A DNA stretch of 64,000 nt, taken from positions 1 to 64,000 of the IMG/VR virus record IMGVR_UViG_3300044846_004348. One strand, written 5' to 3'. Source of the DNA: a virus. The notes beneath the pieces are model-generated. The model was not told the DNA's origin, ran no database searches, and was given only the letters and a program-made list of their open reading frames with translations. A program made the translations under genes and the position numbers. Of the stretch, positions 30,190 through 57,971 are shown one piece after another (position 1 is the stretch's first letter; each line of letters starts with the position of its first letter).

Positions 30190-30711
30190 ATGTGGAAACC
30201 TGCTAACAATCTTGAGTGGCAAAGGGATGCGCTGTGCGCAAAACCAAAAAATCGTAACTACATAAATTGGTTTTTTTCTAACAATACTTCCGAAAAATAC
30301 GGGGCAAAGAATATATGTTTTTCTTGCCCTGTAAGAAAAGAATGTCTTCAGTGGGGTTTAGAGCATCGTCAAATCTGGGGTATTTGGGGCGGTAAAGATG
30401 AAGTTGAGATACGAAGGGCTTTATCAGTTTCATATAAAGGTGAAGAGACTAGAAGAAGACGCTACCCAAACTGCCCATACTGTACTGCAAGACCCTCTAA
30501 ATTAAGAACCTCAACCGAGCAGTTGCCTAATGGTGGTAGATGGACAACAGCAAAGGTTGTGACTTGTGACGAGTGTGGTTTTTCTTGGAGAAGTAGAACT
30601 AGTGCAAATGCTGTTGAGGCATACAAAATAGACAGACAAGACAAAATAACTAAAAGATTAAAAGAAAAAGAAAAGTTATCTAAGAAGAAGAGGGGTCGGA
30701 AGAAGAAATAG
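30190..30711 (+). CDS. whiB: WhiB-family regulator fused to a zinc ribbon and basic tail
   Basis: WQRDALC..AKNICFSCPVRKEC..WGIWGG, then CPYC..CDEC and a Lys/Arg-rich end. Confidence 0.88.
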   Translation: MWKPANNLEWQRDALCAKPKNRNYINWFFSNNTSEKYGAKNICFSCPVRKECLQWGLEHRQIWGIWGGKDEVEIRRALSVSYKGEETRRRRYPNCPYCTARPSKLRTSTEQLPNGGRWTTAKVVTCDECGFSWRSRTSANAVEAYKIDRQDKITKRLKEKEKLSKKKRGRKKK

Positions 30712-31768
30712 TTTTTCCACCTATTTCATAGAAAGTTAAGTTTTTTTGTAGTCTCTCATCATTTGGATTTATCTCTACAGCTTTCTTCCCGTACTCTAAT
30801 GCTTCAGAGTACTTACCTAATCTATAGCAAGATATTGCGGCAAAATCGTATGGAGATTCCCCCCAAGCGTCTGCTTCGCAAAGATACTCTAAAGGTTTTT
30901 CTTTAATACTTAAAGTTTCTATGGAGCACTCTAGACAGTTTTTCCAGTCTTGTTTTGAGTAGTAATATTTTGCTAAATCTAGCCAAGGCTCTCTTCTACC
31001 AGGGGCTTGCTCTATTGCTTGTCTAAACCAGTACTCTGCTTTGTCTGTTTCAATTTTACCTAAGTAACGCATTGAAGCCGCACGTTCTGGTGGCCATTGT
31101 GCTCTTGGTAGTTCTAAATGACGTTTAAATTCTTTTGATGCTTCCTCATATCTACCATAAAAATATAACTCTCTAGCGTAATAAAAAGCATTTCTATCAT
31201 CAGATAAATCTTCTTGCACTGCTTGAGCAAGTAGTGGAAGATATTGTGATCTTGGTTTTGTATTATCTGCGTGATGGTGTATTTCTAAATCTACCCATCC
31301 TTGTAGTTCTGGGCTATCACCGTATCTAACTAGAACTTCGTGTACTGGGTGTTTCCAGCGATACCCCCATCTGGTGTGGATTTTATCGCCTCCATATTGT
31401 AATCCTGGTGTTCCATCTTCATTCCAATTCCATGTGTACTGGTATCTAGGACGAGTCCAATTATTTTTTAGTGCTTTTTCTAAGCACTCTCTCCAGCCAG
31501 GTAGTAATACTTCATCCATATCTAAAGCTATGCAGTAGTCTATATCTGTTGGTAGAGATGCAAGACTAGCGTTTCTTGCTACATCGAATCTCCAAGGTTT
31601 TACATATATAGGTAAAACATTTATGCCTAAAGACTTTGCGTGCTGTACAGTTCCATCTGTTGAACCAGTATCTGCAATTAGTAGATAGTCTGCTTCTTTT
31701 GCTGACTCGTACCAAGCGTCTACAAACTGTCTCTCATTTAAAGCTATGGTGTATATCGCTATTTTCAT
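30680..31768 (-). CDS. GT2 glycosyltransferase with C-terminal TPR repeats
   Basis: YTIALNE, DTGSTDGT, WRFDVARNASL, DMDE (DxD), PVHE, followed by TPR helices. Confidence 0.9.
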   Translation of the reverse strand: MKIAIYTIALNERQFVDAWYESAKEADYLLIADTGSTDGTVQHAKSLGINVLPIYVKPWRFDVARNASLASLPTDIDYCIALDMDEVLLPGWRECLEKALKNNWTRPRYQYTWNWNEDGTPGLQYGGDKIHTRWGYRWKHPVHEVLVRYGDSPELQGWVDLEIHHHADNTKPRSQYLPLLAQAVQEDLSDDRNAFYYARELYFYGRYEEASKEFKRHLELPRAQWPPERAASMRYLGKIETDKAEYWFRQAIEQAPGRREPWLDLAKYYYSKQDWKNCLECSIETLSIKEKPLEYLCEADAWGESPYDFAAISCYRLGKYSEALEYGKKAVEINPNDERLQKNLTFYEIGGKTISSSDPSSS

Positions 31769-56400: not shown

Positions 56401-57971
56401 GTTAGTCCTGTTGTACCAGTTGCACCCGTAGGTCCTAATGCTCCTTGTGCACCTGTTGCACCTGTAGGACCTGTACTTCCTTGAATACCTTGTTCACCTT
56501 GCGCACCCGTTGGACCTTGCGCACCTGTTGGACCATTAGCACCCGTTGGTCCTGTTGGACCTGTACTTCCTGTAGGTCCCGTTACTGTAGATGCTTCACC
56601 TTGCGCACCTGTTGCACCTGTAGGACCAGTGCTTCCTGTAGGACCTGTAGGTCCTTGATCACCAACATCACCAGTTCTTGCAAAAGTTAAAAGTACATCT
56701 TCGTTACTGTCAAATGAGTTTGCTAAACCTGTTAGATAAGTTATTGAAACTTTAAAATAACCAGTAGCTTCAGTAATTGAGTTGATTGCAAAAATAGCAA
56801 AATCATTTGTATCTAGTTTGTTGTAAATCTTAAAGTGACCTTTTAGTGCACTTGTAGAGTCATCAATAGTTCTTAAAAATGCTTGTATATCGATTGCGCC
56901 ATCTGCTTCATCATCGATGTACATAAATGTTGCACCATCAATAAGTGCATTATTAAATTTAACTTTTCCTACACCAGGATCACTATCAGATGTATTAGTG
57001 CTAAATGTGTAATCAAATGTAGCTCCACCAAAACTACCTGCTGGTCCAGTTACACCTTGCGCACCTGTTGCGCCAGTTGGGCCTGCTACACCAGTTGCAC
57101 CAGTTGGACCTATTAGTCCTTGTGCACCAGTCGCACCAGTTGGTCCCGTTACTGTTGAAGCTGCACCAGTTGCACCAGTGGCTCCAGTCGGACCTGTATC
57201 TCCTTGTATACCTTGTGCACCTTGAGGACCTACTTCTCCTTGTGGTCCTGTAGAACCTATACTTCCTGCAGCTCCTGTTGCACCCGTTGCACCAGTAGCG
57301 CCTGCCGCACCTGTTGCGCCAGTTGGGCCTGCCGCACCTGCAGCGCCAGTTGGTCCAGTTGCACCTGCGGCTCCTGTAGCACCAGTTGAGCCTGTAGGTC
57401 CAACAAAGGGTCCAGCGTCAATCCATGAAGAAGTATTTTCAGACCAAATGTAAAGATTTGTACCTATTACATAAGCATCTCCAGGGTCACCTGTTGGATG
57501 TGCTGCTTGTAGTGCACCTAATGTGTTAAAACTTCCAAGTACACTAACACCGTCTCCTGCTGGTCCTGTTGGACCTTGCGGACCGACGGGTCCTCTTGCA
57601 ATGTCTGTTCCTACTGAAGAACTTCCAGATTGTTCTATGGTGTCTAGTCTTGTTATATTTACATCGGACTCATCTCCGAGTGGGAGGTAAAATTTAAAAT
57701 CGTAAGGTTTTGCACCTCTAATTCTTACTCTTGCTGTGTAGTACCAACCTCTAGGACTTAAATCTAAATCGTCTGTGCAAGGGAGTTCAACTGAAAATGA
57801 TCCCTGAGTGTTTAAAGTTACTTGTATAGGACCAGAAAGAATAATTGCATCTTCTGCGTCTTCAACTCTGCTTGAGGCTGTAAAAGTTACTGTTCCAGAG
57901 GCAGGTAAACCGTTAACTTTGGTGTATTGACCAATGACGTTTCTAGTGGAAACATCAACAGGGTAGGCCAT
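53403..57971 (-). CDS. Long collagen-like fibre (1522 aa), probable virion-anchored trunk
   Basis: Actinophage-type N-terminal anchor ([24 protein letters not shown]), extensive GPT/GAT repeats, many interspersed modules. Confidence 0.85.

Follow-up and report, generated by a model that had tools for sequence, protein, structure and literature searches.

Does a phage that encodes long collagen-like fibres also encode the enzyme that puts sugars on them? This question is raised by a block of genes on the minus strand of the virus record IMGVR_UViG_3300044846_004348, of which positions 1-64,000 were analyzed here (the window; the whole record comprises 92,642 bases and is approximately 71% complete). 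The block encodes six collagen-like proteins and ends with a gene for a glycosyltransferase (GT), in which a family 2 domain of the GT-A type is joined to tetratricopeptide repeats (GT2-TPR). An earlier note on this DNA had described the region 30680-57971 as a 27-kb cassette for a glycosylated collagen coat on the virion, and all genes named there, including the six with GPT/GAT-type repeats, were found again on the minus strand where it had placed them. Our comparisons of sequences and modelled folds favor the view that GT2-TPR probably glycosylates the GPT/GAT collagen fibres of its own virion, and they point to tail fibres instead of a coat.

The Gly-X-Y runs of the six collagen-like proteins are 12-93 residues long and, when runs of at least four triplets are counted, amount to 1380 residues or 460 triplets. 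Position X is occupied by Pro (217) or Ala (125) in 342 of the 460 triplets, and Thr is found at position Y in 284 of them (62%), which resembles the BclA-type exosporium collagens with their GPT-type repeats and Thr at Y. The Pfam family Collagen is passed by five of the six proteins, namely those of 1522 aa (53403-57971, E 6e-68), 550 aa (51009-52661, E 1e-28), 646 aa (34281-36221, E 5e-15), 506 aa (36460-37980, E 9e-13) and 216 aa (49197-49847, E 1e-12), all on the minus strand like the remaining genes of the block; the sixth, of 230 aa (52665-53357), stays below the cut-off with 45 residues in runs. The largest protein contains 24 runs with 690 residues, corresponding to about 197 nm if triple-helical, with interspersed globular knots and a C-terminal globular domain, while 54% of the 216-aa protein lies within Gly-X-Y runs. 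From the tract lengths we infer that the six tracts should form trimeric stalks of about 13 to 200 nm, with a helix total of about 400 nm over the six fibres. The earlier note had also stated that a prolyl hydroxylase is missing, and 2-oxoglutarate (2OG)-Fe(II) oxygenases (PF13640, PF03171) indeed gave no match in the whole 92.6-kb record; because the record is only about 71% complete, this does not prove their absence from the whole phage. Collagen helices can also be stabilized by glycosylation, as in the cuticle collagen of Riftia.

The candidate enzyme for such a modification, a protein of 362 aa, is encoded by the last gene of the block (30680-31768). Pfam assigns its residues 6-104 to Glycos_transf_2 and residues 240-345 to TPR families, and the AlphaFold model, with a predicted local distance difference test score (pLDDT) of 92, consists of a Rossmann-like beta/alpha domain (1-165) followed by helical repeats (173-356). 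The closest structures in the PDB over the whole length are the glycocin S-glycosyltransferases SunS and ThuS (7msn, 7msk; E 2e-15, TMq 0.6), followed by GmaR and the TPR domain of OGT. SunS and ThuS share with the phage protein the order of a GT-A domain and a helical, TPR-like substrate-binding domain, and they act on a peptide acceptor; they differ in that the sequence identity is only 14-16% and that they glycosylate Cys of a small bacteriocin precursor. The residues D33, T34, G35, S36, D38, D83 and D85, forming the nucleotide-binding motif D-T-G-S-x-D and the DxD motif, are invariant across the phage enzymes, their relatives from Bacillota and the SgtA-type sequences, and the protein has neither a membrane segment nor a signal peptide.

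SgtA of Clostridioides difficile is a protein of 358 aa and 42.1 kDa with 10 Cys, a GT-A domain and C-terminal TPRs, which is encoded next to bclA3 and in vitro transfers beta-O-linked N-acetylglucosamine (GlcNAc) from UDP-GlcNAc onto Thr (and Ser) of GPT collagen peptides of BclA3 (PMC7157674). A profile of the phage GT and its relatives detected distant full-length homologues in complete Peptostreptococcales genomes of 3.9-4.3 Mb, each adjoining a large GAT/GPT collagen open reading frame (ORF). One of these homologues (L252:1480-2556) has exactly 358 aa, 10 Cys and 42.1 kDa beside a GAT/GPT collagen of at least 480 aa in a genome of 4.1 Mb, and it was equated with SgtA by this match in size, Cys number, mass and collagen neighbour to the published description; no named C. 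difficile record was among the best 80 matches in two genome-contig scans. The window GT and this SgtA-type protein align end to end with 26% identity over 361 aa by BLASTP (E 2e-29) and with a hhalign probability of 99.6% over 342 columns. Hence, as far as homology and the modelled fold can tell, GT2-TPR appears to be an enzyme of the SgtA/SunS class and is proposed to be a collagen-repeat O-glycosyltransferase.

A much closer group of relatives exists in Bacillota, where more than 586 proteins, almost all from endospore formers (Oscillospiraceae, Lachnospiraceae, Brevibacillus, Desulfotomaculum and others), are 43-48% identical to the window GT over the full length and show the same motifs. 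Of 114 distinct Bacillota loci, 55 have a collagen ORF as the immediate upstream neighbour in the same orientation, usually at a distance of 120 nt or less and with a median Thr fraction at Y of 0.65. The rest of the Bacillota flanks (830 kb) contains only 26 collagen ORFs, giving an approximately 15-fold enrichment of the upstream position over the local background, and such a coupling would be difficult to account for unless collagen is what these enzymes act on. The order of a collagen gene followed by the GT gene is the same as in the phage. In a quick maximum likelihood tree the phage enzymes and the uncharacterized cellular enzymes of the Bacillota form two well-separated clades (99 SH-aLRT), so that the pairing with Thr-rich collagen occurs in both of these deeply divided lineages. 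The branch leading to the SgtA group is 6.5 units long and the placement of this group is unreliable, and one Bacillota row (L212) is a bad extraction; because of this, and given that the tree is a quick one, neither a root nor a direction of transfer is claimed. Regarding the membership of these clades, GTs with 50-66% identity to the phage enzyme also occur on contigs of metagenome-assembled genomes labelled Saccharimonadales, Bacteroidia, Prosthecobacter and Chitinophagaceae (L084-L087), which are probably phage contigs binned by mistake; the pair entered in the tree, L084 and L086, falls inside the phage clade. A human-gut contig deposited as 'Bacteriophage sp.' carries a collagen-GT pair as in Bacillota, and several Bacillota genomes as well as one phage (L350:8641-10781, minus strand) have two tandem GT2-TPR copies.

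Among phages, GT2-TPR is represented by more than 7000 sequence clusters in freshwater data; identities across thousands of freshwater sequences are 64-93%, and none of the catalytic motifs is disrupted. Of the 49 related phage loci that offer 2.5 kb or more of sequence upstream of the GT gene, 41 have collagen genes in this flank, 24 of them within 700 nt. The reverse view came from an independent anchor, a 340-aa gene for which a single-protein search gave no match and an alignment-based search gave the loci: the GT is present in 29 of the 35 loci recovered in this way. Two long relatives that lack the GT (G304 and G305, 83% and 89% complete) keep collagens, which are of a Pro-poor Gly-X-Gln type (L354 = G304:4000-9500; L355 = G305:107000-111500) with Thr fractions at Y of 0.12-0.27, compared with 0.45-0.71 in GT-positive related genomes. 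Thr-poor collagens in relatives without the enzyme fit the glycosylation hypothesis. The homologues from Pseudomonas phage PaBG and an Erwinia jumbo phage were also considered as independent support and rejected, since the PaBG GT has no collagen neighbour and the PaBG collagens are Thr-poor.

If the enzyme acts as proposed, the TPR domain would hold the unfolded or trimerizing G-X-T fibre chain in the host cytoplasm during infection, and the GT-A domain, with its DxD motif and a divalent metal, would use a host UDP-sugar to glycosylate Thr (and Ser) in the repeats prior to fibre mounting. The precedent for the donor is UDP-GlcNAc, as used by SgtA, and other enzymes might extend or tailor the glycan. 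The outcome would be glycosylated, hydroxyproline-free collagen fibres on the particle, most likely at the tail or baseplate, where the glycans could stabilize the helix, protect it or, alternatively, take part in adsorption. What serves as substrate and as donor sugar, when the transfer takes place and where the fibres sit on the particle are all inferred. The glycosylation of the collagens by the GT, which the earlier note had envisaged, can be upheld in this predicted form from the SgtA-type homology, the Bacillota pairing, the SunS/ThuS-like fold and the adjacency in phages, all of which are comparative in nature.

Several observations speak against this interpretation. The support consists of gene content, homology, fold and neighbourhood counts, and the phage group is known here from its genes alone; the identity to the SgtA-type protein is only 26%, and the assignment of that protein as SgtA is itself a fit to a published description. 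In the window, the GT gene lies 2.5 kb from the nearest collagen gene with three genes in between (for a carbohydrate-binding module (CBM) protein, a halogenase and a membrane ORF). In 12-15 related loci, about a quarter, the GT gene follows the exonuclease gene and the collagen block is 5-9 kb away across a divergent primase gene, so that adjacency is not obligatory and co-transcription not universal; the co-occurrence of GT and GPT collagens in freshwater phages expected by the earlier note holds for most loci, but not as a fixed arrangement. The comparison of GT-lacking with GT-positive phages involves two versus three to four genomes that are related, non-independent and incomplete. Finally, the PaBG homologue (32% identical) is not next to a collagen gene; the four collagen-like ORFs of that phage (L358, 196500-204000) are 17 kb from the GT, and their Thr fraction at Y is 0.17.

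These points give some room to the explanation that GT2-TPR acts on a host envelope polymer, in receptor masking or superinfection exclusion, on another phage or host protein, or on DNA, and that the end of the operon is simply a spot for accessory genes. In favor of it, the GT gene stays beside the gene for a WhiB-like regulator even where the collagen block sits elsewhere, the same spot collects genes for a halogenase, a methyltransferase, a second GT and an epimerase, the PaBG homologue lacks a collagen neighbour, and roles concerning DNA or the cell wall were proposed for phage GTs by the authors of related phage genomes (PMC10202952). We nevertheless consider it unlikely, because the protein lacks a membrane segment and a signal peptide, the closest structures and the sole characterized homologue are peptide or protein glycosyltransferases, and the family is coupled to GPT collagen genes in Bacillota far above the local background. 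Still less probable is that the fibres are ordinary, unmodified tail fibres in which Thr at Y reflects composition or stability, with the GT being a passenger that, along with a collagen gene, was acquired from a source resembling Bacillota. Collagen-like tail fibres without a dedicated GT are common in phages, for example among E. coli prophage proteins (PMC3368898), and the relatives lacking the GT retain collagen fibres; however, their collagen is of the different, Gln-type, the GT has been kept with intact motifs throughout the freshwater sequences, and the clear separation of the phage clade from the Bacillota clade means that it is not a recent passenger. Collagen glycosylation by GT2-TPR is hence the interpretation we prefer.

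The place of the fibres on the particle can be approached through the non-collagen parts of the proteins. The 1522-aa fibre matches phrog_14726 (tail fibre) with residues 2-240; phrog_3449 (tail collar) is matched by residues 1-87 of the 230-aa protein, which combines this N-terminal 'tail collar'-type motif with a C-terminal globular domain and also matches phrog_13144, and by the N-terminus of the 216-aa protein. The C-domain of the 550-aa fibre and residues 547-643 of the 646-aa fibre match phrog_8780 (minor tail), and residues 317-502 of the 506-aa fibre match phrog_677 (baseplate wedge tail fibre connector); phrog_2885 and phrog_529 complete the tail families matched by non-collagen domains, all of which are family labels. 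Two large proteins are encoded between the collagen genes. The giant protein of 2863 aa (37990-46581), composed of a glycine-rich domain and many beta-repeat modules without collagen tracts, matches phrog_5838 (virion structural, E 7e-152) as well as baseplate wedge and tail fibre PHROGs, and over residues 2044-2863 it shares 36-42% identity with proteins labelled 'virion structural' in S-PM2, Syn1, S-RSM4 and further cyanomyophages. The 826-aa protein (46644-49124), with a poly-Gly N-terminus and a C-terminal GGGWT region, matches phrog_5838 with E 1e-18; the fibrinogen-like label given to it derives from NCBIfam GGGWT_bact (NF040941; E 1e-6), which at 28.4 bits is below the 30-bit cut-off. 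The two proteins match different parts of the phrog_5838 profile. As further observations on the giant protein and its surroundings, its cyanophage homologue adjoins a gene for a subtilisin-like protease or a 2OG-Fe(II) oxygenase, and a subtilase gene lies upstream of the collagen genes in relatives of the L322 type.

Since all scored matches of non-collagen domains fall into families of tail collar, tail fibre, minor tail and baseplate proteins or of virion structural proteins without further specification, tail fibres are likelier than a coat, and we regard a location on the tail or baseplate as likely from these similarities. The earlier note had instead suggested an exosporium-like nap; in the corresponding explanation, glycosylated collagens cover the capsid or the whole virion and are not tail fibres for host recognition. 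This view could draw on the position of the collagen block, which is encoded on the opposite strand and away from the core tail module, and on the six different fibres with their summed helix length, more than a siphovirus tail tip usually carries. Moreover, the CBM protein weakly resembles a head-spike fibre domain of gene transfer agents (GTA), although this match to NCBIfam GTA_spike_fiber (33.4 bits) is below its 36-bit cut-off. A collagen-like protein that binds and can decorate the capsid is known with gp12 of SPP1 (PMC6316719), which counts against a placement on the tail, as does the fact that this placement was read from family labels alone. Apart from the families matched, the shuffling of fibre domains between relatives, as in host-range modules, speaks against a capsid-covering coat, and in cultured Nanopelagicales phages collagen-like genes are situated within a hypervariable island ascribed to host recognition (PMC10202952). 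Taken together, a coat over the capsid or the whole virion is doubtful, and fibres at the tail or baseplate remain the preferred location.

The modular nature of the fibres is evident from several domains. The 646- and 550-aa proteins have a C-terminal domain of about 90 aa in common (48% identity), the N-domains of the 646- and 506-aa proteins are 42% identical, and in a relative (L010:8069-9724) an N-domain of the 646-aa type is joined to a C-domain of the 506-aa type. These common and shuffled domains indicate that the fibres are assembled from exchangeable modules. The head domains claimed by the earlier note are partly different in nature: CBM, beta-propeller and poly-Gly parts are present, but the CBM and the propeller are separate ORFs and not fused to collagen. 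Each follows directly after one of the two fibre genes with the common C-domain as a stalk-less globular protein, the CBM_4_9 protein of 205 aa (33662-34279; Pfam E 1e-13) 1 nt past the 646-aa gene and the BNR/Ycf48-like propeller of 307 aa (50082-51005) 3 nt past the 550-aa gene. The propeller assignment is weak (Pfam DUF6242 E 2.5e-8, PSII_BNR E 7e-5); its orthologue in the related phage DSL-LC01 is annotated as a photosystem II (PSII) assembly factor. The 506-aa protein comprises an N-terminal beta-sandwich domain and a C-terminal domain with a cupredoxin-like ligand motif, a label that reflects the motif GHPF...YQCSVHSGM (His...Cys-x2-His-x2-Met) as read by eye, with no Pfam or PDB sequence match and a C-domain model of pLDDT 40-57. 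The model of the whole protein is poor (pLDDT 45; N-domain about 75), and the best structural match of the N-domain, YomS/XepA with Z 6.8, is at noise level; no anchor type is therefore assigned to this fibre. No C1q/TNF-like trimerization domain or exosporium-targeting motif was matched in Pfam, NCBIfam and PHROG scans, in which context the low confidence of the C-domain folds has to be considered. An 80-aa ORF (36221-36463) without family match follows the gene of the 506-aa fibre, and homologues of 79-83 aa at the matching position in L008-L013 show that it is conserved; it is possibly an assembly factor. Within the collagen tracts, the interruption G-x-x-S-T-V-T-G, mostly GAASTVTG, occurs 24 times in the six genes, and 31 of the 48 collagen ORFs from relatives contain it as well; it may represent a hinge or a preferred modification site.

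The two genes directly upstream of the GT gene were regarded by the earlier note as parts of the cassette. The tryptophan-type flavin-dependent halogenase of 516 aa (32060-33610) is intact, with a Pfam Trp_halogenase match over residues 9-471 (E 2e-106), the motifs GGGTAGW, GWMWKIP and FIEPLEATS readable in the translation, and PrnA, RebH, Thal and VirX1 as PDB relatives (E 1e-48 to 1e-62). The stop of its gene is overlapped by 4 nt by a hydrophobic ORF of 96 aa with a TTG start (31773-32063) and without family match, which ends 4 nt before the GT gene. About 5 of 80 GT-anchored loci contain the halogenase gene, as do about 15 of the 35 loci recovered through the anchor gene, which corresponds to approximately 6-40% of the relatives' loci; it is always beside the GT gene but in variable order and orientation, and homologues of the 96-aa ORF accompany it in L005, L055 and L306. 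The guanine plus cytosine (GC) content of its region (32-34 kb) is 0.30. Because of this patchy occurrence, variable arrangement and low GC content, the halogenase was rejected as a core part, and it is, together with the 96-aa membrane ORF, an accessory gene inserted at the end of the operon. In relatives, the operon end also collects a Methyltransf_24 gene (L322:8494-9069, minus strand) or a second GT-A-like gene together with one for an NAD-dependent sugar epimerase/dehydratase (L284:16572-17441, minus strand, and 15575-16579, plus strand), and DSL-LC01 has a UDP-galactopyranose mutase and another GT. Outside the window, the minus strand of the record encodes a MobA-like nucleoside triphosphate (NTP) transferase of 229 aa (record positions 72624-73313), a polysaccharide pyruvyl transferase of 252 aa (77478-78236) and an S-adenosylmethionine (SAM) methyltransferase of 262 aa (82667-83455), which may supply or tailor the glycan. 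This company of further glycan genes, near the GT in relatives and elsewhere in the present record, speaks for the proposed glycosylation. A far-reaching version of the proposal, in which helix stability and surface chemistry depend on dense Thr-O-glycans and methyl-, pyruvyl- and halogen-adding enzymes tailor the fibres into an exosporium-like nap, has in our opinion little chance of being correct; if true, a virion glycoprotein that is halogenated or multiply tailored would be known for the first time.

The genes from 59582 to 30680 on the minus strand form one co-oriented, tightly packed block, in which the gaps between the exonuclease gene and the GT gene range from -4 to 119 nt. The extent proposed by the earlier note was correct in that 30680-57971 belongs to a single block, but co-orientation runs beyond 57971 to 59582 and includes the exonuclease gene (58091-59296) and a 97-aa ORF at the upstream end. 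Another putative small ORF of 50 aa (49920-50072) follows the propeller gene, and DSL-LC01 has a hypothetical gene of 165 nt at the matching place. At the other end, the 3' ends of the GT gene and of the WhiB-like gene that converges with it share 32 nt (30680-30711), so that a terminator has no space between them; scans for promoters and terminators over 30-60.6 kb yielded no more candidates than shuffled controls did and delimited no clear units. As the earlier note had observed, the block is opposite in strand to the core tail genes: on the plus strand lie the genes of a siphovirus head and tail module, for portal, major capsid protein, major tail protein, tape measure, Dit, a Tal-like protein and a fibre with S74 chaperone, followed by a replication module with DNA polymerase, helicase, exonuclease, Sak4 and two WhiB-like regulators.

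Among named phages, the nearest relative is DSL-LC01 (OQ999401), an Actinomycetia phage assembled from metagenome data of Dishui Lake; its major capsid protein is 74% identical. It carries the cassette in identical order, with the collagens, the propeller, a 2850-aa counterpart of the giant protein, the halogenase and a GT that is 71% identical and convergent with WhiB. The paper on this phage lists the halogenase as an auxiliary metabolic gene; the collagens are not discussed and the GT is not linked to them (PMC10611076). Both the presence of WhiB genes and the GC content of about 38% are consistent with a phage that infects low-GC Actinobacteria of freshwater. The best explanation is that the window belongs to a freshwater actinophage, a siphovirus related to DSL-LC01, and that the minus-strand block is its fibre and adsorption module.

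In comparison with the SgtA/BclA3 system, the phage enzyme agrees in its size of about 360 aa, the collinear arrangement of an N-terminal GT-A and a C-terminal TPR domain, the soluble, cytoplasmic nature, the location in one unit with GPT/GAT collagens and the missing prolyl hydroxylase. Apart from the low sequence identity, it differs in gene order, because the collagen gene is upstream of the GT gene in the phage and in the Bacillota family while sgtA is upstream of bclA3. Moreover, its proposed substrate is a virion fibre in place of the surface layer of a spore, the phage host is an actinobacterium that does not sporulate, and both the activity and the donor sugar of the phage enzyme are predictions. 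Trimeric Gly-X-Y stalks joined to globular domains are likewise found in the EPclA-type fibres of E. coli prophages (PMC3368898) and in gp12 of SPP1 (PMC6316719), for which no dedicated glycosyltransferase is known; the window differs from them by six paralogous Thr-type fibres and a GT in one block. Actinophages encoding glycosyltransferases that are proposed or shown to modify their own virion proteins also include mycobacteriophages. Virion glycosylation in this group was reportedly described by Freeman et al. in 2023. The mycobacteriophage systems use other GT families, and instead of collagen repeats they modify capsid and tail-tube proteins at their C-terminal tails.

In the literature collection searched, no paper links a phage GT2-TPR enzyme to collagen fibres. 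If the proposal is correct, very abundant freshwater actinophages make glycosylated collagen fibres with an enzyme of their own, and the surface chemistry known from SgtA and BclA on spores would extend to virions, representing a bacterial-type answer to the problem of stabilizing a collagen helix without hydroxyproline. For the large, uncharacterized enzyme family of the Bacillota it would provide a testable function, and the small soluble enzyme together with short substrates such as the 216-aa fibre is suited to direct work in E. coli. Glycosylated fibres would furthermore matter for the recognition of hosts, for the stability of particles in dilute waters and for the phage surface as it is met by receptors, grazers or immune systems.

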